Of a DNA stretch of 64,000 nucleotides, positions 8,732 to 24,668 are shown piece by piece. The stretch is from Thermoplasmatota archaeon (GTDB lineage Archaea; Thermoplasmatota; E2; JACPAO01; JAHFTW01): positions 4,370 through 68,369 of the forward strand of contig JBMYRW010000007.1 in NCBI GenBank assembly GCA_049602735.1. Reading direction: 5' to 3'. The first letter of the stretch is position 1, and every line of letters begins with the position of its first letter. Under the pieces are notes generated by a model. That model was not told where the DNA came from. It saw nothing but the letters and a program-made list of their open reading frames with translations, and made no database searches. The translations under genes were made by a program, and so were the position numbers.

Positions 8732-9874
8732 ATGCAGTTCGAGCTGACCGACGACCAGCGCATGATCCGCGACATGGTGCGCGAGTTCGCCGAGAAGGAG
8801 ATCATGCCCGTGGCCTCCAAGCACGACCACGAGCACACCTTCCCTGAAGCGACCGCCAAGCGCATGGGCGAACTGGGCCTCCTGGGCATCACGGTGCCTG
8901 AACAGTACGGCGGCCCCGGAGCCGACTACATCAGTTTCGCCGTCGTCGCCGAAGAGATCGCACGCGCCTGTGCGAGCCATTCGGTCATCTTCGGCGCCTG
9001 CGCCAGTCTCACCGTGAGCCCCATCCTCAACTGGGGCAACGAGGAGCAGAAGCAGGAATGGCTGCCGAAGCTCGCCAGCGGCGGCGCCATGGGCTGCTAC
9101 GCCCTCACCGAGCCCACCGCGGGCAGCGACGCCGGCAGTCTCCTCACGAAGGCCACCCGCGACGGCGACGAATACGTCCTGAGCGGCCAGAAGGTCTACA
9201 TCTCCAACGGCGCCGTGGCCGATGTCTGCATCGCCTTCGCCCGCACCGACCCCGACTCCAAGGACGCCCGCGGCGTCTCGGCCTTCATCGTCCCCACGGA
9301 CACGGAAGGCTTCCGCGTCGGCAAGAACGAAGAGAAGATGGGCCTCAACGCCTCCTACACGAACCAGATCTTCTTCGAGGATGTCCGCATCCCTGCCGAG
9401 AACATCCTTGGCAAGGAAGGCGACGGCTTCAAGGTCGCCATGAGCACCCTTGACGTCGGCCGCATCATGGCCGCCAGCGGCTCCACCGGCATCGCCCGCG
9501 CCGCCATGGAGGACTCCATCGCCTACGCCAAGGAGCGCGTCCAGTTCGGCGTGCCCATCGCGTCCCATCAGGCGATCCAGTGGAAGCTGGCCAACATGGA
9601 CGTCAACATCGCCGCGGCGCGCCAGCTCTACCTGAAGGCCGCCTGGCTCAAGGACCAGGGCAAGCCGTTCACGGTGGAAGCCAGCCGCGCCAAGCTGTTC
9701 GCCAGTGAGATGGCCATGGATGCCACCCTGGATGGCGTGCAGATCCACGGCGGCAACGGCTACACCAAGGACTACAACGTGGAGCGCTACGTCCGCGACA
9801 TCAAGATCTTCGAGATCTTCGAAGGCACCAGCGAAGTACAGCGGATGGTCATCGCGCGTTCGCTGCTCTCCTGA
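8732..9874 (+). CDS. Acyl-CoA dehydrogenase (short/branched-chain type)
   Basis: MQFELTDDQRMIRDMVREFAEKE..., YALTEPTAGSD, and the C-terminal IFEGTSEVQRMVIAR signature. The start is placed at ATG 8732 rather than the track start at 8705. Confidence 0.9.
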   Translation: MQFELTDDQRMIRDMVREFAEKEIMPVASKHDHEHTFPEATAKRMGELGLLGITVPEQYGGPGADYISFAVVAEEIARACASHSVIFGACASLTVSPILNWGNEEQKQEWLPKLASGGAMGCYALTEPTAGSDAGSLLTKATRDGDEYVLSGQKVYISNGAVADVCIAFARTDPDSKDARGVSAFIVPTDTEGFRVGKNEEKMGLNASYTNQIFFEDVRIPAENILGKEGDGFKVAMSTLDVGRIMAASGSTGIARAAMEDSIAYAKERVQFGVPIASHQAIQWKLANMDVNIAAARQLYLKAAWLKDQGKPFTVEASRAKLFASEMAMDATLDGVQIHGGNGYTKDYNVERYVRDIKIFEIFEGTSEVQRMVIARSLLS

Positions 9875-12812: not shown

Positions 12813-13079
12813 ATGAAATCCACCATGATTCTCGTATTGGGTCTGCTCTTGGCCACCCTAGGGCCCGCGAACCTAGGCTCCGCAGGCCACAACTGCGATC
12901 TGGAGAACCGGGACTTGGACTACGTCTGCGACAACTACCATTCTCCTGGAGGAATGACCTGCATCTGGATCAAGCACTACGTAGGGCCGGACCTGTGTTG
13001 GTTGCTCCATGAATGGTTCTTTGCCATTGGAGCCGATCTTGAGCCTACGCAACAGATTGCTGCCGGCCAACTTGACTGA
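12813..13079 (+). CDS. Small secreted Cys-rich protein, family B paralog 2
   Basis: Signal peptide MKSTMILVLGLLLATLGPANLGSA, then GHNCD...YVC...MTCIWIKHYVGPDLCW (4 Cys). Confidence 0.8.
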   Translation: MKSTMILVLGLLLATLGPANLGSAGHNCDLENRDLDYVCDNYHSPGGMTCIWIKHYVGPDLCWLLHEWFFAIGADLEPTQQIAAGQLD

Positions 13080-13103
13080 GTCGGCTGCACCCGGCCCCCA
13101 CGT

Positions 13104-13150
13104 CGCTTCTCGTTTTCCCCTCCATCGCCCTCGTTTCTTCGACCTCTTCT
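13104..13150 (+). terminator. CT-rich tract after family B paralog 2
   Basis: cgcttctcgttttcccctccatcgccctcgtttcttcgacctcttct. Confidence 0.4.
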
Positions 13151-13256
13151 GGAGGTTTCCGGCGATCGTCTGATCCGATGCTTATGAGCTGGTCCCGAAC
13201 CCACGGTTCTGCTGATGTTTCTCAGTAGAGCGATGGCTCCTACACTGATCAGAAAC

Positions 13257-13277
13257 GGTTCGGTTGTTCCACGAACC
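13257..13277. promoter_or_regulatory. Inverted repeat GGTTCG-N9-CGAACC upstream of family B paralog 3
   Basis: gaaacGGTTCGgttgttccaCGAACC lies about 75-90 nt upstream of ATG 13349. An additional GAACC-CAC-GGTTC lies at 13197-13209, and the direct repeat ccattggacag occurs at 13280-13290 and 13330-13340. Confidence 0.45.
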
Positions 13278-13348
13278 AGCCATTGGACAGTGGCTTAACC
13301 CTGGAACAGATTTCCGTCTCCTTGTCCCCCATTGGACAGGAACGAACC

Positions 13349-13648
13349 ATGAAGACGATGATGATCCTGATGACACTGATCGCGGCCTCCGCGATGATCC
13401 CGACCGCGCAGGCGGACCACGCGTGCCCCGACCCCGGCACCGACCGTGAATACATCTGTGAGAACATGCACACTCCTTGGAGGATCGTGTGCGATCAGAT
13501 CAAGAAGTACGTCGGTCCGAGCCTGTGCTGGATCTTCGGGGATCTCGAACATGAGGCCCAGACGGCGCTGTTCTCCGCGGCCGCTGGCGCCGAGTTCATC
13601 GATTTCCTGGGCGCCTCCGATTCGGATTCGTTCGAATCTCAAGCCTAG
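13349..13648 (+). CDS. Small secreted Cys-rich protein, family B paralog 3
   Basis: Signal peptide MKTMMILMTLIAASAMIPTAQA, then DHACP...YIC...WRIVCDQIKKYVGPSLCW (4 Cys) and an acidic tail. The start is taken at internal ATG 13349 of track ORF 13283..13648. Confidence 0.8.
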   Translation: MKTMMILMTLIAASAMIPTAQADHACPDPGTDREYICENMHTPWRIVCDQIKKYVGPSLCWIFGDLEHEAQTALFSAAAGAEFIDFLGASDSDSFESQA

Positions 13649-13741
13649 GCCTTGTAGGTAGGGGCTTCCCGATGCCGACGTAGCGCGGCTTCGGGGGCCT
13701 CTTCCCTTGCGGGTTAAGTGGCCTGCGGGTCTGGCCGCATC

Positions 13742-15979
13742 ATGGCCCTGGCAGACCTCGGCATGGACCCCCGCGTGGCGGCTGTGCTGGAAGACCAGGG
13801 CATCCAGGAGTTGTACCCGCCCCAGGTGGAGGCGTGGCAGGCGCTGCGTGGAGGCGGCAACGTCCTGGTGGCGGTGCCGACGGCGTCCGGCAAGAGCCTC
13901 GTGGCGTACCTGGCGATCCTGCACCGTTGGCTGGCGACGGGGAAGAAGGCGCTCTACATCGTGCCCTTGCGGGCGCTGGCGTCGGAGAAGCACGAAGAGC
14001 TGCAGGCGTTCAAGGAGCTCGGCCTCAAGGTGGGCCTCGCGACGGGCGACCTGGACGAGCGGGACCCGCGCCTCGGTCGCTTCGATGTCATCGTCTGCAC
14101 CTCCGAGAAGGCGGACAGCCTGCTGCGCCACCGCACGTCGTGGGTGGATGACATCGGCTGCGTGGTGGCGGACGAGCTCCACCTCATCCATGAGCCCAAG
14201 CGCGGCCCGACGCTGGAGGTGATCCTCAGCCGCTTCCGTGGCCTGCTGCCGGATGCCCAGATCGTCGGCCTTTCTGCCACGGTCACCAACGCGGCGCAGG
14301 TGGCCCGCTGGCTCGGCGCCGACCTCGTCCATTCCACGTGGCGCCCCGTCGACCTGCGCCTGGCGACGTACCACGGCAACGCCCTGGAGTTCTGGCAGCC
14401 CCACGGCGAGAAACGGGAGCTGGAAGCGGGCGGCGACCCCGTGGTGGGACTCGTGGAGGACGCCATCGACCAAGGCGGCCAGGCCCTGGTGTTCGTGAGC
14501 ACCCGGCGATCGGCCGAGGCCCAGGCGAAGCGCCTTGCCGGCCCGGTCGCCGCCAAGCTCAACGCCGAAGAACTGGCGGCGCTGGAAGAGGCCGTCGGGG
14601 AGCTGGCCAAGGGCAGCGGCGACGACGTGCCGTCCAACGTCAAGGCCCTCCAACTCCTGGTCAAGCGCGGCGCCAGCTACCACACGGCGGGACTCGACTC
14701 GGCGCAACGACGCTTCATCGAGGACGCCTTCCGCCGCGGCCTGATCAAGGTCCTGTGCGCCACGCCGACCCTGGCGGCCGGCGTCAACACCCCCGCCCGG
14801 CGGGTCATCATCCGCGACCTGCGGCGCTTCGAGGCCGGCTATGGCAACGTGCCGCTGCCGGTGATGGAGGTGCAGCAGATGATGGGGCGCGCCGGCCGGC
14901 CCCGTTACGACCCCTACGGCGAAGCGGTCCTCTTGGCCAAGAGCGCCGAAGAGCGCGACGCCATCGTCGAGACGTACCTCCTGGGGGAATCGGAGCCGGT
15001 CACGAGCAAGCTGGCCGGCGAAGGGCCCCTGCGCATCCACACGCTGGCCAGCATCGCCGGCGGCTACTGCGCCACCTTCGCCGAGCTGCGCGCCTGGCTG
15101 GAGTCCACCTTCTGGGCCGCCGAGACCGACACGTGGATCCTCGAAGAACGCCTGGAGGACGTGCTCTGGTTCCTGGAGGACAACGGCTTCGTGGAGCGGG
15201 ACGGCGGCCAGCTGCGCGCGACGCTGTTCGGCAAGCGCACCAGCGACCTCTACATCGACCCCGCCTCCGCGCTCCGTCTGCGGGAAGCCCTCGGCTCCGC
15301 CCGGCCCAAGGCGACGGACATGGGCCTGCTGACCGCTGTGGCCGGCTGCCCCGAAGTGTTCCCGCTCTACCTGCGCAAGGCGGACGACTGGGTGCAGGAA
15401 CGCTACTGGGAACTGGAAGGGGAATGGCTCGTGGACGACCGCGACATGGAGGCGGCCATGAGCTTCGCGAAGACCGCGCTGCTGCTGCGGGACTGGATGA
15501 ACGAGGTGCCGCAGCGGGACATGGAGGAACGGTACCAGATCGGCCCCGGCGACGTCCGGCTGCGCCTCGATACCGCGCGCTGGCTCGTCCACGCGTTCCG
15601 TGAACTGGCCCGCGCCTTCCGCGCCGACTGGCAGGCCCACCTGGCCGAGATCGGCGTCCGTCTCGAATCCGGCGTCAAGAAGGAGCTCCTCCCGCTCCTG
15701 AAGCTCCGCAACGTGGGCCGCGTCCGCGCCCGCACCCTCCACGCCGCCGGCTTCCACACGCCGGACGCCCTCAAGGGAGCCCCCGTCGCGCGGCTGGCTG
15801 CCCTCGCTGGGGTCGGCGACCGCATCGCCCGCGACCTCCTGCGCCAAGTGGGCGACGACCCGGATGTGGCGCCCAAGGAGCAGCCCCCCGCTCCGAAGGC
15901 GAACCCGGACGAGGACGACGGGGCCCCGCCCACGCCGGACAACGGTCAAGCCAGTCTGGCACAATGGGGGGGCGCGTGA
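13742..15979 (+). CDS. hel308: Ski2-like DNA helicase Hel308
   Basis: ELYPPQVEAW, Walker A PTASGKS, the DELH box (VVADELHLI), ATPTLAAGVNTPARRV and MMGRAGRP. The N-terminus MALADLG fits Hel308 better than the GTG at 13718. Confidence 0.9.
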   Translation: MALADLGMDPRVAAVLEDQGIQELYPPQVEAWQALRGGGNVLVAVPTASGKSLVAYLAILHRWLATGKKALYIVPLRALASEKHEELQAFKELGLKVGLATGDLDERDPRLGRFDVIVCTSEKADSLLRHRTSWVDDIGCVVADELHLIHEPKRGPTLEVILSRFRGLLPDAQIVGLSATVTNAAQVARWLGADLVHSTWRPVDLRLATYHGNALEFWQPHGEKRELEAGGDPVVGLVEDAIDQGGQALVFVSTRRSAEAQAKRLAGPVAAKLNAEELAALEEAVGELAKGSGDDVPSNVKALQLLVKRGASYHTAGLDSAQRRFIEDAFRRGLIKVLCATPTLAAGVNTPARRVIIRDLRRFEAGYGNVPLPVMEVQQMMGRAGRPRYDPYGEAVLLAKSAEERDAIVETYLLGESEPVTSKLAGEGPLRIHTLASIAGGYCATFAELRAWLESTFWAAETDTWILEERLEDVLWFLEDNGFVERDGGQLRATLFGKRTSDLYIDPASALRLREALGSARPKATDMGLLTAVAGCPEVFPLYLRKADDWVQERYWELEGEWLVDDRDMEAAMSFAKTALLLRDWMNEVPQRDMEERYQIGPGDVRLRLDTARWLVHAFRELARAFRADWQAHLAEIGVRLESGVKKELLPLLKLRNVGRVRARTLHAAGFHTPDALKGAPVARLAALAGVGDRIARDLLRQVGDDPDVAPKEQPPAPKANPDEDDGAPPTPDNGQASLAQWGGA

Positions 15980-17179: not shown

Positions 17180-17833
17180 GTGAAGGCGGCGGTCCTCGAT
17201 TTTGACGGCGTGGTGGCCCAGAGCATGGAACAGCACGCCGAAGCGTACCGCCTGGCCCTTGCGCCCCTTGGCGTCGACGTGAGCCAGCAGGCGGTCTTCG
17301 AACGTGAAGGGGCGCGCAGCGAGACGATCATCGCGGACCTCCTTGCGGCGGCGGGTCGCCCAATCCCGGACGAACAAGAGATCGGGCGCCTGGCGGACAC
17401 GAAGCAACGGCACTTCCGTGAACTGGGCGAGGTGCGGCTCTATCCCGGGGCCCAGCAGATGGTCGAAGCCCTGGCCGCCAGCCCTCTGAAGCTGGCCCTG
17501 GTGACCGGCACGCGCCGCAGCAACCTGGAACGCCTCATCCCGGACCTCCTGCCCCTGTTCGATGCGGTGGCGGCGCAGGAGGACTACACGCACGACAAGC
17601 CCCACCCTGAGCCGTACGCCAACGCCGCGAGCGCGCTGGGCCTCGCTCGAGCGGACTGCATGGCCTTGGAGAACGCGGTGCGGGGCGTCGAGAGTGCCCG
17701 AGCTGCAGGCTACGGCCAGGTCTTCGGCATCGCGACCACCATGCCCGCCGAGCGCCTCCTTGATGCCGGGGCCGCGCGCGTCGTGGCCGACCAGGCTGAA
17801 GCGACCGCCCTCTTGCTGGATCAGGCCGCGTGA
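17180..17833 (+). CDS. HAD-superfamily hydrolase (beta-phosphoglucomutase-like subfamily IA)
   Basis: Motif I DFDGVV, motif II LVTGT and motif IV ENAVRGVESARAAG. GTG start. Confidence 0.8.
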   Translation: MKAAVLDFDGVVAQSMEQHAEAYRLALAPLGVDVSQQAVFEREGARSETIIADLLAAAGRPIPDEQEIGRLADTKQRHFRELGEVRLYPGAQQMVEALAASPLKLALVTGTRRSNLERLIPDLLPLFDAVAAQEDYTHDKPHPEPYANAASALGLARADCMALENAVRGVESARAAGYGQVFGIATTMPAERLLDAGAARVVADQAEATALLLDQAA

Positions 17834-18318
17834 CCCGCGCGCCGGTGGTGGGCGTCATGGGTGGCGGGAAGGCTGCACCGGCGGTCACGCAGCTCGCCGA
17901 AGCACTAGGCGCCGCCGTCGCCCGCCGGGGCTGGTGGCTGCTGACGGGTGGCCGCGATGCCGGCGTCATGGCGGCGGCGACCCGAGGGGCCAAGCACGAG
18001 GGCGGCCGCGTGGTCGGCGTCCTTCCTGGTCGCCGGGGCGACGGCGGCGAGGCTCCGGGCCTGGACCTGGCGATCTACACCGGTATGGGGGATGCGCGCA
18101 ACGTGGTCAACGTGCTCTCCAGCGACGTCGTCCTGGCCCTGCCGGGCGGCGCGGGGACGCTCTCGGAGGTGGCGTTGGCGGTGAAGTCCGGCATCCCCGT
18201 GGCCCTTGTCGTGCCCGATGGCGCACCCGCATGGGCGGCCGAGCTTGGCGTGCCGTGCCTTCCCGACGTGGCTGGCGCCGTCGCGTGGGTCGACGAGCGG
18301 CTTCAGGCGAAGAGCTGA
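17830..18318 (+). CDS. TIGR00725/LOG-like Rossmann protein
   Basis: VGVMGGG...LLTGGRDAGVMAAATRGAKHEGGRVVGVLP...PGGAGTLSE is typical of the LOG / lysine-decarboxylase-like family. It overlaps the HAD stop (GTGA). Confidence 0.6.
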   Translation: MTRAPVVGVMGGGKAAPAVTQLAEALGAAVARRGWWLLTGGRDAGVMAAATRGAKHEGGRVVGVLPGRRGDGGEAPGLDLAIYTGMGDARNVVNVLSSDVVLALPGGAGTLSEVALAVKSGIPVALVVPDGAPAWAAELGVPCLPDVAGAVAWVDERLQAKS

Positions 18319-19436
18319 CGCGCGGCGGCCACATCGGCGGGTCGCTCGTTGGGGTCGTCGCGGCATAGGGCGCTCACGATCTTCTGGTCCTCCTCCGGTA
18401 CACCCGCGTCCTTCAGGGCTGCCAGGAGTTCGTCGTGTTCCCAGCCCCGCTGCGGCCGTTGGCCCATGCAGAGGAACGCGTACAGCCGGCCGAAATTGCA
18501 CAGGTCGCTGCGCACGGTGCCACGGGCACCAAGACCGTCGTCCTCCTTGCGCCGCATCTCAGGGGCGATGTACCCCGGCGTGCCGAGTGCCGCCCGACTG
18601 CGCACACAGCCATCCACAAGGGGTCGCGCGACGCCGACATCGATGACCTCCAAGTGGCCGTCGTCGCGGGCGATGAAGTTGCCCGGCGCCTGATCGAGGA
18701 GCAGGAAGCCCTGCTCGTGGCAGTGGCCAAGGATGTCGAGGATCTGCGTGGCCCAAGCGAGCCGCTTCGACCGGTCATCGGTCACGGGCGGGGCCGCCTT
18801 GTTGAGCGGCTCGCCGACGGCGTAGCTGCGCACCATGTGCAGAAGGCCGCGATGGGTGAAGCCGTCCACCAGGCGCGGGATGAGGGGATGGTCGAGGCGG
18901 CCCAGGATCGCCATCTCGATCGCCGTCGCCTTCTGGCCGGTGCGGATGGAGTTGAGGACGCCCCAGGCATGCTTGACGATCACTTCCTGCCCGGTCTGTC
19001 GGTCCTTGCACAGGTGGGCGATGCCCATGGAGCCACGCCCAATCTCCCGGATGCGCTCGTAGCGGCCGGCGAAGACCTCGGGCGGCTCCTCCAGGGGAAG
19101 CTCGAGGTAGCCCAGGTTGCGCAGGCGCCAGATGTACTTCCGGGCGAGCTTGCGCTTGTCGCGGCTGCGCAGGATGCGCTCTGTGGGGTAGTCCGGCATC
19201 GCTTTGCCCATCTCTTCCAGCGTGGCGCCTTGGGCCAGGCCATCGATGACGTCGAGGCAACTGGCGTGGACGCGTTGCCAGGTGTCCGAGCCGTCCCAGT
19301 AGACCTCGCCCCAGGAAGGTTCGCCTTCGAGGCGGCGCGTCGGGGGGAGGCGGTCGATCACGGGCGGCGGGAAGAAGCGCTCCGGCTCCTCCACGTCGGG
19401 GACCTCCAGGCCGAGTTGCTCCGTCAGGCTGCGCAC
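18303..19436 (-). CDS. Ser/Thr protein kinase with N-terminal PqqD(RRE)-like winged-helix region
   Basis: Kinase motifs: Gly-loop IGRGSMG, VIVKH Lys, catalytic LLLDQAPGN (non-RD), DVG (DFG-like) and APE. Residues ~43-112 (EVYWDGSDTWQRVHASCLDVIDGLAQGATLEEMGKAM...KLARKYIWRLRNLGYLEL) follow the PqqD-like pattern. The GTG start overlaps the pmbA stop by 13 nt. Confidence 0.75.
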   Translation of the reverse strand: MRSLTEQLGLEVPDVEEPERFFPPPVIDRLPPTRRLEGEPSWGEVYWDGSDTWQRVHASCLDVIDGLAQGATLEEMGKAMPDYPTERILRSRDKRKLARKYIWRLRNLGYLELPLEEPPEVFAGRYERIREIGRGSMGIAHLCKDRQTGQEVIVKHAWGVLNSIRTGQKATAIEMAILGRLDHPLIPRLVDGFTHRGLLHMVRSYAVGEPLNKAAPPVTDDRSKRLAWATQILDILGHCHEQGFLLLDQAPGNFIARDDGHLEVIDVGVARPLVDGCVRSRAALGTPGYIAPEMRRKEDDGLGARGTVRSDLCNFGRLYAFLCMGQRPQRGWEHDELLAALKDAGVPEEDQKIVSALCRDDPNERPADVAAARQLFA

Positions 19437-20767
19437 GACACCCCTCCCCCCGAGAGCGCCGTGAAGGTTCCGCTTCGCGCCTCCACCTGTTCGCGCCCCA
19501 CGCCGTGCAGGTCCCGCATCAGGTCGTGGACGTTGCCGCCGATCGTCGTATGGGGCAGCGCGTGGACCACTTCGCCCTTCTCGATGAGGAAGCCGAACGG
19601 TGCCACGACGCTGAAGTCGCCCGTCGTCCGGTTGCTGCTGAAGAAGCCGGCCAGAGGATCGGTGACCAGGACGGCGCGGTCTTCGGCCGCGATGAGCTCC
19701 TCCAGGCTCTTGTCGCCACCACCCACCACGGGATGGACGGGTGCCACGCCGACGCCGCTGCTCCAGCCGCCGGCGCGCAGGCCCCGGCCGTTGCTGCCGG
19801 TCCCCGCTGCGGCCCCAGACCGGGTGTCATGGAGCACGTTCCGCAGGAGGCCATCCGTGACGAGGTCCAACGGATCGCACGGTGTCCCTTCATGGTCGAA
19901 CCGCCGGACGCGGTGGCCAGCGGGGGCGTCGCGGATGTCCAGAAGCGGCGAAGCCACCTGTTCGCCCAAGCGCCCCGCGAAGGGGCCCTTGCCCGTCTCG
20001 ACGAGCCGCCCGGAAAGGGGGTGGAGGAACATGGAGACGAACTGGCCGGCCGCTTGAGGTGCCAGCACCACGTCCGTGACGGGGCGACCAAGGGGTTTGT
20101 GCTGGAGGGCATCTGCGGTGCGACGGGCCAGGGCGCCACCCACGCGTTCGATCTCCGACATCTGGAGTCCTTCGCGGGCGGCCAGCAGGTCCATGCCGGT
20201 CCGCTGGGCCTGCGTGCCCACCTCGCCGGCGCGCGTGTCCAGCAGCATCCATTCCAAGGACGTCTCGTCCCACGCCTGGTGCCCCGTGTCGTTGGCGACC
20301 GCGAAGCGACTGCGGCTGGAGGCGACCGTGACCGCCCGGTAGGTGCAGGCCTCCTGGTCAAGCGCCGCCATCGCCGCCGCGCCAAGCGCCTCCAAGCGCG
20401 CTGGGTCAGGGTCCCGGAACACTTCCGGCGTCGCCGAGGGCGTGTCACTCGACCTTGTGGCCGGTGCGGCGAAGCCGGCAAACGCCACATCCACCGGGGC
20501 CTGACGGGCGGCCAGGCACGCCTCATCCACCAGTTCCGCGATGCGGCCGGAGCCAGAACTGGACGCCTGGCCGGGCCGGCCGTCCACCACGACGCGCAGG
20601 GCCATCCCCAGGCTGTGGCTTGCCTTCGGCGCCGTGAAGCCCTCCCGGCACACCCAGTTGAGCGACCGCCCCTCCTGGATGAACGCCTCGGCGTGGTCGG
20701 CGCCCGCGGCCAGCGCCCCCTCGACGCTCCGTTCGGCGTGGTCCTGCAGCTCTTCGATGGGCCTCAT
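19424..20767 (-). CDS. pmbA: PmbA/TldE metalloprotease partner subunit
   Basis: TldD/PmbA family fold with no HExxxH motif. The start MRPIEELQDHAERSVE at 20767 gives an ATGA overlap with the tldD stop, so the track N-terminal extension to 20857 is rejected. Confidence 0.8.
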   Translation of the reverse strand: MRPIEELQDHAERSVEGALAAGADHAEAFIQEGRSLNWVCREGFTAPKASHSLGMALRVVVDGRPGQASSSGSGRIAELVDEACLAARQAPVDVAFAGFAAPATRSSDTPSATPEVFRDPDPARLEALGAAAMAALDQEACTYRAVTVASSRSRFAVANDTGHQAWDETSLEWMLLDTRAGEVGTQAQRTGMDLLAAREGLQMSEIERVGGALARRTADALQHKPLGRPVTDVVLAPQAAGQFVSMFLHPLSGRLVETGKGPFAGRLGEQVASPLLDIRDAPAGHRVRRFDHEGTPCDPLDLVTDGLLRNVLHDTRSGAAAGTGSNGRGLRAGGWSSGVGVAPVHPVVGGGDKSLEELIAAEDRAVLVTDPLAGFFSSNRTTGDFSVVAPFGFLIEKGEVVHALPHTTIGGNVHDLMRDLHGVGREQVEARSGTFTALSGGGVSCAA

Positions 20768-22185
20768 GCCACCTGCCCACCGACCAGGGCCTCCGAGACG
20801 AGGACCTGCGGGCCGCCCGTGCCCACGTGGATGAGCGACTGGTCCCATTTGCCACATCCACCGAAGAACGTGGTGCGCAACCGGAAGTCGTCGGTGATCG
20901 CTTCGATGTTGCCGAAGAAGTCGAGGATGTTGCCGTTGATGGTGGCCATCTTGATGGGGTGGGACAATTCGCCGTCCTCCACCCAGTAGCCGCCTTCGGA
21001 CGTGAACGTGAAGGAGCCGTCGGAGCGGGGCGCCCCGCCGCGTCCCCCTTGCAGGTAGACGCCGGTGCCCAGGGCCTCCAGTGCCTCCTCTTGGCTGTGG
21101 TCGCCGGGCTCCATGAACGTGTTGCGCATGCGGACGATGGGCGCGTGGCTGACGTTGAGCGCCCTGGCGCTCCCCGTGGCCGCCACGTCCTGGTCGGAAG
21201 CCGAGTCCCGGCCGTGCAGGTACGCCGTCAGGGCGCCTTGGTCCACCAGGGTCACGTCGCGGCCCGGCGTCCCCTCCTGGTCGAACGGCACCACCACGCC
21301 ATGCTTGACCGGCCCAGGCATCCGTGGCACATCCCGGATCGTCACGTCACGGGGGGCCAGTCGTTCACCCAGCCGGTCCTGGAGGACGCTCCAGCCGGGG
21401 GCGACCACGTCGTACTCCGTCAAATGGCCGAAGCTCTCGTGCACCATGATGCCGGTGAGCTTGTTGTCGCAGAGGGTCCGGTAGCGGCCGGCCGTGATAG
21501 GCTTCGCCTCCAGGTCGACCTTCGCGGCGCGCCCGGCCGCCCTGCCGAGCGCCTCGGGGCCCCCTTCGTCCTCGTAGTCGCCGAAGCCCAGCTCGCCGCC
21601 GCGCCATTCGTTGCCGCTGCCATGGCGCGCACCATCACGGGCGAGCGTCTGGACGAGCAATGTGGAGAGCAGGTTCTCGGAGACCACGTGGCCTCCCGTC
21701 GAGTTGGCCACGACGGTCAGACCGCGCCGGGCACCGAAGCCCACCTGGGCCACCTGCCCAGGGACCTCTTCAAGCGCCGCCTCCTCCGCGCGCCGAAGCA
21801 GCCCGTAGGCCGCTTCGTCGGGGACGTCGTGGGGGTGTTCGCGGACATCTGGTGTGTGACGCCCCTTGTGGTCATGGAGGTCAGGAGCAAAGCCGTCCCA
21901 TCCCTGCCTGGCGTTCGCCTGGGCCAAGCGGCCGGCCTGGTCGACCAGGTCCCGGAGCGCATGGTGGGTCAGTTCGTTCGTGTAAGCGTACGCCGACGCG
22001 GCGCCCTCGAAGGCGCGGATGCCGATGCCGCCCACGTGGCTACGCCCCGCCGATCGGAGTTGGCCGTTGCGCAGCACCCATCGCCGGTCCTCTTGGATGT
22101 CGAGCCGTACCTCGAAGGCGGAGAGTCGTTGCTGCGCCAGTTCGACGGCTCGCTCGGTCCAGGATTCAGCGTCAGTGGGCTCCAC
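20764..22185 (-). CDS. tldD: TldD metalloprotease
   Basis: HExxxH-type motif GIMVHESFGHLTE. The start is set at GTG 22185 (VEPTDAESWTERAVELAQ), which has AAGGAG upstream. The track extension to 22404 has no homology-like content. Confidence 0.8.
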   Translation of the reverse strand: MEPTDAESWTERAVELAQQRLSAFEVRLDIQEDRRWVLRNGQLRSAGRSHVGGIGIRAFEGAASAYAYTNELTHHALRDLVDQAGRLAQANARQGWDGFAPDLHDHKGRHTPDVREHPHDVPDEAAYGLLRRAEEAALEEVPGQVAQVGFGARRGLTVVANSTGGHVVSENLLSTLLVQTLARDGARHGSGNEWRGGELGFGDYEDEGGPEALGRAAGRAAKVDLEAKPITAGRYRTLCDNKLTGIMVHESFGHLTEYDVVAPGWSVLQDRLGERLAPRDVTIRDVPRMPGPVKHGVVVPFDQEGTPGRDVTLVDQGALTAYLHGRDSASDQDVAATGSARALNVSHAPIVRMRNTFMEPGDHSQEEALEALGTGVYLQGGRGGAPRSDGSFTFTSEGGYWVEDGELSHPIKMATINGNILDFFGNIEAITDDFRLRTTFFGGCGKWDQSLIHVGTGGPQVLVSEALVGGQVA

Positions 22186-22203
22186 GGCAGGCTCCTTGGA
22201 ACG

Positions 22204-22270
22204 GAAGGTTGTGGGTTCAAAAGTGGGGGGTAGAGAGAGGGTAGAGGGAAAGTTTGGGGTCAAAACGGCA
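22204..22270 (-). terminator. CT-rich tract with T-runs downstream of the 36-aa ORF
   Basis: On the minus strand it reads ccgttttgaccccaaactttccctctaccctctctctaccccccacttttgaaccc, lying between the small ORF stop and the tldD start. Confidence 0.4.
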
Positions 22271-22282
22271 ACGTGCCGAGGC

Positions 22283-22393
22283 TTAGATAGCCTCGTCAGC
22301 GGTGGTACCGTTCGTGTCGTCCGCGCCCGTGGAGGCACCGGACGTGTCCAGGTCACCCAGCTCGGGCAGTTCGGGGATGTCGACCAGCAGCAT
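22283..22393 (-). CDS. Unannotated 36-aa acidic Ser/Thr-rich peptide (candidate precursor peptide)
   Basis: MLLVDIPELPELGDLDTSGASTGADDTNGTTADEAI. AAGGAGGTGA ends 7 nt upstream of the ATG. About 30 of 36 codons end in G/C. It has its own AT-rich upstream region and a CT-rich tract downstream. The peptide has 9 acidic and 0 basic residues. Confidence 0.6.
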   Translation of the reverse strand: MLLVDIPELPELGDLDTSGASTGADDTNGTTADEAI

Positions 22394-22470
22394 TTGTTGT
22401 TCACCTCCTTGAGGAGTTCCGGGGGCAGCAGCCAGCTGCTCCCGCGGCAAACCGGACCATTGCCCTACAG

Positions 22471-22479
22471 TAGATAAAG
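22471..22479 (-). promoter_or_regulatory. TATA-like element upstream of the 36-aa ORF
   Basis: On the minus strand it reads ctttatcta, about 80 nt upstream of the ATG, in the only AT-rich stretch between the ABC stop and the peptide ORF. Confidence 0.35.
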
Positions 22480-22509
22480 AGTCTCAAGCGTTACCGGTTT
22501 ATCGAACTT

Positions 22510-22565: not shown

Positions 22566-24668
22566 TCATGCAGCGCCTGCCTGGACCGTCTCCTGACGGA
22601 ACGCCACCGGCGTCGCACCCTGTTCGTGCAGCCACCCATCGAGCCGCTCTAGGTTGTCCACGGGGTCCTCCAGCAGGATGTGCAGGGCCCGGCCCCTTCC
22701 GGTGGCCGCCTTGACGCCGGGCGCCGCGCGGAGAGCAGCCACCAGGCCGGCCAGGGGTTTGGCGAGGGTGACGTGGATCCAATCCGCTTCGGTGTCGACA
22801 TCCGCTGGTTCTGGTTCGGCCGCCGTCGCATCATGCCCGAGGTCCTGCAGGCGGACGTAGCGGGCGTAGGCGCCGCCCTTGGCCAACAGGGCAGCGTGGC
22901 GCCCCTGTTCCACGATGCGCCCCTTCTCCAGGACGACGATCATGTCGGCGTCGCGGACGGTGGAGAGCCGGTGGGCGACGGCGACCACGGTGCGGTCGCG
23001 GCTCACACGGTCGATCGCTTCCTGCACGAGCCGCTCGGTGGCCGTGTCGAGGGCGCTGGTCGCCTCGTCGAGGATGAGCAGGTCAGGGTCGGCCAGGATG
23101 GCGCGGGCGATGGCGAGGCGCTGGGCCTGCCCGCCGGACAAACGGACGCCGCGGTCGCCGATGACCGTGTCGTAGCCGTCAGGGAGCTCCTGGATGAAGG
23201 CGTGGGCGTTGGCCTGCTTGGCCGCCTCCATCACTTGGGCGTCCGTGGCCTCCGGGTTGCCGAAGCGCAGGTTGTCCGCCACGGAGGCGTGGAAGAGGAA
23301 GGTGTCCTGGGAGACCACGGCGACGCGGCGACGCCAGTCCTTGATGCGGAAGCGTCGCAGGTCGGTGCCGTCCACGGTGACGCGCCCTTCGGTGGGGTCG
23401 AAGAGGCGGGTGAGCAGGTCGATGATCGTGGACTTGCCGGCGCCGCTGCCGCCTACCAGGGCGACCTTCTGACCCTTGTTGATGGTGAGGTCGATGCCGT
23501 CGAGGACCGCCGGTTCGTCCGCCTCGTAGTGGAACCGGATGCCCTCCAGTCGCACGGCCTGCCGGAGCCCAGGGAACGCCTGGTCGCCGTCGGCGAGGTA
23601 GCTCTTGTCCTTCCGTTCCATGAAGTGGACGATCGCTTCCAGGTACGGCAGCTCCGATTCCAGCGTGGCCCGCAGGCGGGCATAGTCGCCGCTACGGCTG
23701 AGCAGGGGAAGCAGCAGCACGCTGAAGAGACCCAGGATGACGAGCCAGTCCCCGTCGGAGCGGTCCAGCAGCAACGTGGCACCCACCAGCACCGTGGCCA
23801 CGAGGGCGTTGCTGGCGATGAGGTACAAAGCAGGCACAAGGGCGCTGATGCGGGCGCGGCGGAACTGGTCCCGCTGCATCTGCGTCAGTTCACCCATGAA
23901 CCGCGTCCGGGCCTCCTCTTCGCGGCCGAACTGATGGATGAGCTTCATGCCCTGCAGGGACTCCAGGCTGACCTGGTGGAGGCGCAGGCGGCTTTCGCGG
24001 ATGCGGTGGCTGAGCGCCCGGATGAACACCTGCAATTTGCCGAGGCTCAGGTTGACGATGATCGCCAGTCCCACGGCCAACAGGGTGAGCTGCCAGCTCG
24101 TGAGCGCCATGGTGACAAAGACCGCCAGGAAGCTCGTGGAGGTGCGTACGGCGTTGAGCAGCTCGTTGACGATGCGGGTGGAATGGCTGGGGAACGAGTG
24201 CATCAACGTGAACAGGTTCGCCTGCTTCTCCTTGTTGATGAAGCGCTGCTCCACGCCCACCACGTCATCGAAGACCATGGCGCGCAGGTCGCGGCCCACC
24301 TGGATGCGGATGAGGTGGGCGACGCGGCCGTACCCGTAGCTGACGGCGGCCTTCAGGAGCGCGATCGCGAAGAACAGGAGCGCCACCAATTGCACCCGCT
24401 CCACCACGGTGAGGCCTTCGAAGAGGGGCAGCAACGCGGCGATGGGGGTGTCCTGCGCGAGGCTGCCGTCGCTGCCGCGCAACGTGGCCAAGAGCGGCAC
24501 GAACACCATGAAGTTGGCCACCTCGAGGGCGGTCAACAGGAGGATCAACGCGAAGGCGGCCGCCAAGAGTAGAGGGTGGCGCAGCACCACCCGCATCAGG
24601 AAACCAAGGCTCTGGCGACGGGGCAGCGGCTGATCGGTTCCCATGTGTTCTTCGCGGACCTTCTTCAT
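22566..24668 (-). CDS. ABC exporter (fused TMD-NBD, MsbA-like) with ~90-aa C-terminal extra domain
   Basis: Six-TM ABC membrane domain, Walker A GGSGAGKST, signature LSGGQAQR and Walker B LLILDEATSALD. An extra C-terminal WIHVTLAKPLAGLVAALRAAPGVKAATGRGRALHILLEDPVDNLERLDGWLHEQGATPVAFRQ follows. The start is uncertain (ATG 24668 or 24644; the track start at 24722 overlaps the gcvT upstream region). Confidence 0.85.
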   Translation of the reverse strand: MKKVREEHMGTDQPLPRRQSLGFLMRVVLRHPLLLAAAFALILLLTALEVANFMVFVPLLATLRGSDGSLAQDTPIAALLPLFEGLTVVERVQLVALLFFAIALLKAAVSYGYGRVAHLIRIQVGRDLRAMVFDDVVGVEQRFINKEKQANLFTLMHSFPSHSTRIVNELLNAVRTSTSFLAVFVTMALTSWQLTLLAVGLAIIVNLSLGKLQVFIRALSHRIRESRLRLHQVSLESLQGMKLIHQFGREEEARTRFMGELTQMQRDQFRRARISALVPALYLIASNALVATVLVGATLLLDRSDGDWLVILGLFSVLLLPLLSRSGDYARLRATLESELPYLEAIVHFMERKDKSYLADGDQAFPGLRQAVRLEGIRFHYEADEPAVLDGIDLTINKGQKVALVGGSGAGKSTIIDLLTRLFDPTEGRVTVDGTDLRRFRIKDWRRRVAVVSQDTFLFHASVADNLRFGNPEATDAQVMEAAKQANAHAFIQELPDGYDTVIGDRGVRLSGGQAQRLAIARAILADPDLLILDEATSALDTATERLVQEAIDRVSRDRTVVAVAHRLSTVRDADMIVVLEKGRIVEQGRHAALLAKGGAYARYVRLQDLGHDATAAEPEPADVDTEADWIHVTLAKPLAGLVAALRAAPGVKAATGRGRALHILLEDPVDNLERLDGWLHEQGATPVAFRQETVQAGAA

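Follow-up and report, generated by a model that had tools for sequence, protein, structure and literature searches.

Few peptide natural products are known from archaea, and genome mining finds only those classes that already have rules. Among the described pathways for peptides that are made on ribosomes and modified after translation (RiPPs), the TldD/TldE (TldD/E) protease takes off the leader in microcin B17, in klebsazolicin and in a microcin C analogue (PMC10885120), and the clusters for pearlin/ammosamide and for biphenomycin include genes for TldD-type proteases, the biphenomycin protease BipI trimming both ends of its substrate (PMC10885120, PMC12707348). In phosphorylated lasso peptides (paeninodin type; BsfK/BsfB1) the precursor is phosphorylated before leader removal, and a separate RiPP recognition element (RRE) protein strongly stimulates the precursor kinase (PMC10368454). 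A RiPP survey of 11,644 archaeal genomes mentions neither kinase, TldD nor phosphorylation (PMC12144867). Here we describe a 64,000-nucleotide stretch of a Thermoplasmatota archaeon (contig JBMYRW010000007.1, positions 4,370 to 68,369; hereafter the window) in which a 36-codon open reading frame (ORF) lies in a cluster with TldD, its partner PmbA/TldE, a Ser/Thr kinase and an ATP-binding cassette (ABC) exporter. This ORF is almost certainly a real, conserved small gene of uncultured Thermoplasmatota, and we favor, with some reserve, the reading that it encodes the substrate peptide of a RiPP-like kinase/TldD-E/ABC pathway in a small clade of these archaea. As in haloarchaeal lanthipeptides and other antiSMASH-detectable archaeal classes, a small archaeal peptide is found near tailoring and export genes. 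Existing class rules would probably miss this gene set, and searches of full-text literature found no description of a kinase-TldD/E-peptide cluster. With familiar parts in a combination that we did not find described, the cluster is a candidate new RiPP class.

The cluster genes are on the minus strand, in the order ABC exporter, peptide, TldD, PmbA/TldE and Ser/Thr kinase. The genes next to them at either end are housekeeping genes without a relation to the cluster: GcvT at one end, and at the other an LDcluster4 protein and a HAD hydrolase. The features are:

22566-24644, minus strand: ABC exporter, MsbA/HepA-like, 692 aa, fused transmembrane and ATPase domains (Pfam, NCBIfam and the L004 gene call)
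22401-22408, minus strand: Shine-Dalgarno (SD) sequence GGAGGTGA, within AAGGAGGTGA, ending 7 nt 5' of the ATG
22283-22393, minus strand: peptide gene, 36 aa and a stop codon, translation MLLVDIPELPELGDLDTSGASTGADDTNGTTADEAI; residues 1-16 (MLLVDIPELPELGDLD) are conserved and leader-like, residues 17-36 (TSGASTGADDTNGTTADEAI) variable, acidic and Ser/Thr-rich
20764-22185, minus strand: TldD-type metalloprotease, 473 aa, GTG start, zinc motif HESFGH
19424-20767, minus strand: PmbA/TldE partner, 447 aa, no HExxxH (Pfam and the L004 gene call); 4-nt overlap of its start with the stop of tldD
18303-19436, minus strand: Ser/Thr protein kinase (Pfam Pkinase), 377 aa, its start overlapping the end of pmbA by 13 nt; residues 1 to about 120 are predicted to form an RRE-like beta3-alpha3 domain; a Hanks-type kinase domain takes up residues from about 125 to 377

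An earlier reading of the letters of this DNA (the sequence-only reading) had described the ORF product as an extremely acidic, bipartite peptide, and translation of the minus strand, a strand that this reading had not named, agrees: there are six Asp and three Glu, no Lys, Arg or His, no Cys, and seven Ser/Thr within the last 20 residues. Its comparison of the N-terminal half with RiPP leaders by an L-x-x-L periodicity held in part; Leu9, Leu12 and Leu15 do have this spacing, but the region is better described by a conserved P-x-L...LDLDG motif. GC content by codon position is 0.68/0.46/0.81, close to the average of six neighboring genes (about 0.72/0.47/0.88), so that the third positions are indeed G/C-rich as in genes of this region, and the other two frames do not have this pattern. 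The SD sequence alone is not statistically remarkable, because the octamer occurs six times in the window versus about three expected.

The evidence that carries the gene is comparative. A protein search with a 40-aa version of the peptide reached only the identical peptide, and homologues were therefore sought via the neighboring genes, in the neighborhoods of ten TldD representatives and of scan matches. In 11 related Thermoplasmatota metagenome loci, with 10 distinct peptides, an acidic and mostly Ser/Thr-rich ORF of 28-36 aa heads the same cluster, directly 5' of TldD in 10 loci and ahead of the first kinase in L078/L079. Every locus with sequence 5' of the cluster start has such an ORF there. 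The TldDs of these loci are 34-59% identical to the window TldD, and in all related loci GGAGGTGA (GGAGGTAA in L049) stands 4-7 nt before the peptide start codon. The peptides are:

L046: MMLGNLPSLPAIGDLDSDGASDTTGDEA
L045: MKTDLPTLAEGLDLDGTDGSEGTTTQTEI
L047: MKLADTPSVDGVLDADGSDGDAEASPNTELA
L049: MKLANTPTIDAALDLDGTSTTSGGDGTTTGDTESEL
L078/L079/L051: MMTIDIPTVDEALNLDGTSGSAETGATETA, in two tandem copies
L050: MKLLVEQESDLEFLLGTTTADDNSDATSNTTEI
L082/L083: MKLLAELSLSDAVDGTTADNTAGESGSDASGEL
L081: MNMRAILVVTSSLLEGEETTTDGVTESDSASDEIDL
L080: MMSNVTGAGITGLLESLGVDLEGAGVDTQ

A composition filter, applied to both strands over 4-15 kb, picked out one such ORF type per locus except in L080, whose peptide was read by eye; two unrelated ORFs, in L001 and L046, also passed it. 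Nine family peptides were aligned, and the tenth was read from L080. Their N-terminal 15-17 residues are conserved in the alignment as M-[KLM]-L-x-[DN]-x-P-x-[LIV]-...-L-D-L-D-G, with a second subtype starting MKLL[AV]E, whereas the C-terminal half varies in length and sequence. The composition of this half stays the same, with many Thr, Ser, Asp, Gly, Glu, Asn and Ala residues, and its last two residues are usually E-[ILA]. A conserved recognition part followed by a variable core is thus seen in the nine aligned peptides and in that of L080. Together with the multiple precursor copies, it makes up a pattern that RiPP precursors typically have. Across the loci, differing codons specify the conserved residues, including TCC versus AGC for Ser. 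In addition, a hidden Markov model (HMM) was built from nine peptides, that of the window being left out, and run on all six-frame ORFs of 800 kb, which took in the window in full and 581 kb of control loci. Among ORFs outside the training set, that of the window came first (E=0.072; best control, E=3.2). The intact ORFs in 11 loci, the synonymous codon changes and this rank uphold the proposal of the sequence-only reading that a real small gene had been overlooked. That reading had also named frameshifts or stops in homologous regions as evidence against a gene. The ORF is intact at the same place in these regions, and the sole frameshifted copy is a second paralogue in L047/L048.

This paralogue (L047 1037-1130 and L048 1-90; MRLVDTPTIDG / LPDIDGTDGDPCTDEGTGMG) has the same 1-nt frameshift in two independent samples. 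It is the sole disrupted copy found, adjoins an intact copy and holds the only Cys of the family; it may be a pseudogene or may need frameshifting. The tandem genes of L078/L079 (5246-5338 and 5688-5780) are identical in DNA over the SD sequence and from start to stop, with four differences in the spacer and unrelated flanks, which suggests gene conversion or a very recent duplication of the unit made of SD sequence and ORF.

Loci outside the family were also inspected. None of the Bathyarchaeia TldDs from a scan of genome contigs for TldD (about 28-31% identity), which served as negative controls, has a comparable peptide. P0083/L084, with 39% TldD identity, has no peptide upstream and lies outside the TldD clade described below. 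The kinase orthologue loci L001/L002 and L003 are uninformative for the peptide, the cluster being decayed or the contig cut, and a tentative peptide remnant in L001 was not substantiated by alignment. Only three true relatives came from a kinase-profile scan of metagenome contigs, each of them on a short contig. The cluster-bearing Thermoplasmatota come from soil and sand and are uncultured.

For the description of the ORF as unannotated, the support is indirect. The exact window peptide occurs in the protein collection only as a Logan gene call (P0001), while its neighbors are also listed from NCBI. The NCBI-derived gene tables of three related loci (L046, L078 and L080) leave the peptide gene uncalled, whereas the ENA/Logan tables of L079, L081, L050, L047, L049 and L082 have it. 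This looks like a systematic annotation gap for the family in NCBI-derived tables, and the three loci illustrate it.

Across the loci the peptide is accompanied in the cluster by TldD and PmbA, by between one and three paralogous kinases, and by an ABC exporter that has either of two architectures. TldD and PmbA are present in every locus, and the exporter in every locus with enough sequence. In the window, tldD and pmbA overlap at 20764-20767, and pmbA and the kinase gene at 19424-19436; the latter overlap of 13 nt recurs in L001, L002, L046, L047, L049 and L050. These overlaps suggest translational coupling.

The gene following the peptide had been taken for tldD, and Pfam places all three PmbA_TldD domains (1, 2 and 3) in it; the pair matches PF01523, PF19290 and PF19289. 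HExxxH, here HESFGH, is present in nine of nine TldDs and in none of the nine PmbA proteins. A TldD with this motif and a partner without it form the arrangement of the active heterodimer (PMC10885120), and the pair, as judged from its sequence, is a heterodimeric metalloprotease of the TldD/TldE type (MEROPS M103). The window TldD falls short of the NCBIfam equivalogs, with scores of 203 versus a cutoff of 635 for the archaeal model and 144 versus 513 for the E. coli model. About 60 cluster representatives are 41-59% identical to it, and TldDs of Bathyarchaeia, Thor- and Heimdallarchaeia about 34-38%. In a neighbor-joining tree the nine TldDs whose context was inspected define a clade of exactly 60 representatives, apart from other archaeal TldDs and on a short stem.

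The locus compares with the TldD/E systems (microcin B17, BipI of biphenomycin, pearlin/ammosamide) in having an HExxxH-containing TldD and a motif-less TldE near a small precursor. By analogy, trimming of the unmodified flanks of a modified peptide would be expected here too (PMC10885120; PMC12707348). It differs in that the pair is encoded in the cluster, forms a clade of its own and belongs to an archaeal host; in that the modifying enzyme would be a protein kinase instead of a YcaO/McbBCD, MNIO or PEARL enzyme; and in that the leader has only about 16 residues, to which the E. coli ruler model does not fit unchanged. A linear azol(in)e peptide of the microcin B17 type was considered and rejected, since neither a YcaO nor a McbBCD-like gene is present and Cys is absent from the peptide.

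The kinase appears catalytically complete by its motifs. D-x4-N and DxG are kept in all 19 kinases examined, and the Gly-loop and beta3-Lys patterns were matched in 18, the exception under the search pattern used being that of L080. In each of the 19, about 85-130 aa precede the kinase core as an N-terminal extension. Only 75 proteins reached E<=1e-30 when 1.84 billion representative proteins were searched exhaustively; thus, the family is small. Most of the 75 are 320-395 aa long, and their matches start in the N-terminal extension or close to it. In NCBIfam the window kinase best matches LanL, a class IV lanthionine synthetase, in its kinase part (E=2e-27; 96 bits versus a cutoff of 650), over positions 183-451 of 851. 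It is shared with LanKC/LanL of class III/IV lanthipeptides that a Hanks-type Ser/Thr kinase acts, in the window only by inference, on Ser/Thr of a leader-bearing peptide. The window enzyme differs in that the kinase, of about 370 aa, stands alone, lacks lyase and cyclase domains and has a different putative leader-binding domain, and the intact precursors have no Cys. A lanthipeptide system was ruled out on these grounds (no Cys in the intact peptides, no lyase, no cyclase, 96 versus 650 bits).

An AlphaFold2 model of the window kinase (predicted local distance difference test, pLDDT, 88) has strands at residues 33-35, 42-45 and 54-57, then helices at 58-68, 73-79 and 94-107, followed by a standard kinase fold. 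The order of strands first and helices second is that of PqqD-like RREs, unlike DNA-binding winged helices. We also modeled the N-domain alone, from a three-sequence alignment (pLDDT 77), and compared it with PDB folds by Foldseek. It came closest to the leader-bound lasso RRE TbiB1 (5v1u/5v1v), with a probability of 0.99-1.0, a target TM-score of 0.61 and E=0.016-0.04. Further matches included TigE, LynD, TruD, CteB and TbtB, the E-values of the RRE matches ranging from 0.016 to 0.6, and RRE-bearing RiPP enzymes made up eight of the top 15 PDB fold matches. These models are suggestive of an RRE-like domain; we rate the relationship no higher because sequence methods do not detect it.

The resemblance to phosphorylated lasso peptides would lie in a kinase aided by an RRE, with a lasso RRE as the closest modeled fold. 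The P-x-L element of the putative leader is also reminiscent of the lasso YxxPxL motif. The lasso kinases, however, are HPr-kinase-like and separate from the RRE, whereas the window has a Hanks kinase fused to the RRE-like domain. The cluster also lacks a lasso cyclase and a B2 protease, and no macrolactam acceptor pattern is evident in the peptide. A phosphorylated lasso cluster was rejected, since the cluster proteins include no Asn-synthetase-like cyclase, B2 protease or HPrK-like kinase domain.

The window ABC exporter has no C39 peptidase domain, which would leave peptide processing to TldD/E. Orthologous fused exporters are found in L047, L049, L050, L081 and L082, and a two-gene ABC-2 type in L003, L078 and L080. 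The presence of an exporter in all sufficiently long clusters, in two architectures, argues that export is part of the system. The window exporter extends about 80 aa past the ATPase domain (about 22566-22810, minus strand), without a Pfam match. L047 and L082 have no such extension, that of L050 and L081 differs, and in L049 it reaches about 190 aa.

The likeness to a RiPP precursor proposed by the sequence-only reading thus gains from the conserved N-terminus, the variable C-terminus and the context of TldD/E, kinase and ABC exporter. In the pathway that we infer, with leader binding, phosphorylation, trimming, export and all of the chemistry, the peptide gene would be transcribed from a promoter of its own, and its strong SD sequence would make translation efficient. 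The RRE-like domain at the N-terminus of the kinase would bind the conserved N-terminus of the peptide, about 16 residues long (D/N-x-P-x-L/I/V...L-D-L-D-G), and the kinase domain would phosphorylate several Ser/Thr of the variable acidic C-terminal segment. The TldD/TldE metalloprotease encoded in the cluster would then trim the unmodified flank or flanks, and the ABC exporter would secrete the product, probably a multiply phosphorylated, strongly anionic peptide. Because there is no lyase or cyclase in the five-gene cluster and no Cys in the peptides, a linear peptide of this kind is the simplest product. Still, that the final product is a phosphopeptide is a tentative proposal, somewhat short of an even chance. 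At least as doubtful is the full picture of a new archaeal RiPP class, in which leader-guided, multi-site Ser/Thr phosphorylation by RRE-fused kinases is followed by dedicated TldD/E trimming and ABC export of a secreted, polyphosphorylated, polyanionic product. Such a peptide would be a microbial natural product of a so far undescribed kind and might serve in metal or mineral binding, signaling or antagonism. If leader-guided phosphorylation were true, it would define a new RiPP class. [quoted passage not shown]

Several points weigh against this reading. That phosphate is the final, retained modification is a guess. The clade with the peptide family is small and known only from metagenomes, and the L080 peptide has only five Ser/Thr. 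In the pencil-sharpener model of E. coli, about 13 residues are left before the first bulky modification and about 15 free residues are needed (PMC10885120); if the model applied unchanged, a 16-residue leader would hardly be shortened. Across the kinase family the LanL model scores no better than PknB, and the top structural matches of the whole-kinase model are PknB, CaMKII and the like, as for a generic Hanks-type kinase. An RRE was not detected in the kinase N-domain with Pfam (E<=10) or with a PDB sequence profile. The assignment is one of fold only, with Foldseek E-values of 0.016-0.04 for the three-sequence model of pLDDT 77.

It is possible, though unlikely, that the pathway is the same but phosphate is only an intermediate, the phospho-Ser/Thr being eliminated to dehydroalanine or dehydrobutyrine, or replaced by an unrecognized activity, and a dehydrated linear peptide exported. 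The match of the window kinase to the kinase part of LanL would fit this, and in class III/IV lanthipeptides phosphorylation is followed by elimination (PMC10604976). However, the minimal window cluster has no further gene, no lyase or cyclase domain was found (only the 183-451 segment of LanL is matched), there is no Cys to accept a Michael addition, and the LanL model does not rise above PknB across the family, as noted.

Alternatively, the ORF might encode a small acidic intracellular protein, such as a kinase substrate, a regulator or an antidote-like partner turned over by TldD/E, with the ABC transporter serving another purpose. TldD/E degrades unstructured peptides such as CcdA in E. 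coli, according to work cited in PMC10885120, and the window peptide has no signal sequence. We consider this alternative about as improbable as the preceding one. An ABC exporter of either of two unrelated architectures is present in every sufficiently long cluster, and the tandem or multiple precursor copies, like the variable C-terminal half, are what is typically seen in RiPP precursors. The modeled kinase N-domain, moreover, resembles RREs and not DNA-binding winged helices. A known anti-phage defense system was also considered and rejected. PADLOC gave only scattered generic matches (kinase, ABC ATPase: mad6, PD-T4-6; mad3, mad8) and none for TldD or PmbA, so that nothing in the kinase, TldD, PmbA or exporter points to a known defense system.

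It is far less probable that the ORF is a regulatory upstream ORF whose translation, and not its product, controls the tldD-pmbA-kinase operon. This would suit its position directly 5' of tldD. The elements that lie around the ORF are:

22446-22480, minus strand: putative archaeal promoter, read from the sequence, with a TATA-like TCTTTATCTA at 22471-22480 and, about 17-19 nt downstream of it, a conserved GGTTTGCC at 22446-22453
22262-22278, minus strand: short hairpin CGGCA-CGT-TGCCG followed by TTTT, directly past the stop codon
22217-22252, minus strand: conserved tract rich in pyrimidines, CTTTCCCTCTACCCTCTCTCTACCCCCCACTTTTGA, in the gap that separates the peptide gene from tldD

In favor of such a role are the hairpin or pyrimidine tract between the ORF and tldD. 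Amino acids, on the other hand, are conserved through synonymous changes; the peptides have a family-specific motif and a conserved C-terminal E-[ILA]; peptide copies are duplicated; and in L078 the kinase gene, instead of tldD, follows the peptides. Folding of the ORF region against shuffled sequences revealed no significant RNA structure. Rfam gave no credible match over the region, the only one being a sub-threshold match to a eukaryotic nanos element on the opposite strand. Conservation at the RNA level only, which the sequence-only reading had raised as a possible objection, thus does not agree with the differing codons or with these searches. Finally, a chance ORF in a GC-rich intergenic region has next to no probability and is effectively refuted by conservation across 11 loci, for although long spurious ORFs are common at 68% GC (for example, 468-aa and 152-aa antisense ORFs over tldD) and the SD octamer occurs six times versus about three expected, all of the comparative evidence (11 loci, alignment, codon differences, codon-position GC and held-out HMM) stands against it.

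With regard to the expression signals themselves, the TATA-like box is followed about 16-19 nt further on by the conserved GGTTTGYCC, an arrangement common to the window, L045, L046 and L049. The conserved GGTTTGCC is probably the transcription start region, which would give a 5' untranslated region of about 55-60 nt. A scan of the region for bacterial-type promoters and terminators found nothing, as expected for an archaeon. A GGGAGGY motif lies 55-80 nt 5' of the ATG in L047, L050, L078 (both copies), L081 and L082, and also in L046. The hairpin past the stop codon is part of the minimum free energy structure; the fold is not significant against shuffles, and the hairpin went unflagged in a simple terminator scan. 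It might act as a partial terminator or stabilize the mRNA. Stronger GC hairpins right after the peptide stop are seen in other loci, those without a pyrimidine-rich tract. Similar tracts (TCCCTCT...CCCC...CTTTTGA) occur in L045, L046, L049 and the L001 remnant (about 9690-9740). The tract, for which no significant fold was found, might signal termination or attenuation or serve as an anti-SD element.

The two long antisense ORFs, at 20827-22233 (plus strand, 468 aa) and 22019-22477 (plus strand, 152 aa), overlap tldD and the peptide gene. They are typical of spurious ORFs at 68% GC and have no gene-like family matches.

The neighborhoods of the cluster vary as well. In L001 (9789-11107) and L002 (2444-3762) the cluster is decayed: of pmbA only the last ~74 codons remain, and they still overlap an intact kinase gene by 13 nt. 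Compared with the syntenic L049, the peptide gene, tldD and the second kinase gene are missing, as are the ABC genes. A HAD-family hydrolase, possibly a phosphatase, adjoins the cluster in the window (17180-17833, plus strand) and in L046 (5889-6533), at opposite ends; the cluster is inverted relative to a helicase/CGI-121/HAD neighborhood common to both. Because the hydrolase is absent from the other loci, its proximity probably reflects synteny and not function. At the cluster edge of L078, and in this locus only, there is an Rce1/CPBP-like membrane protease (13037-13966). CPBP proteins are often bacteriocin immunity factors.

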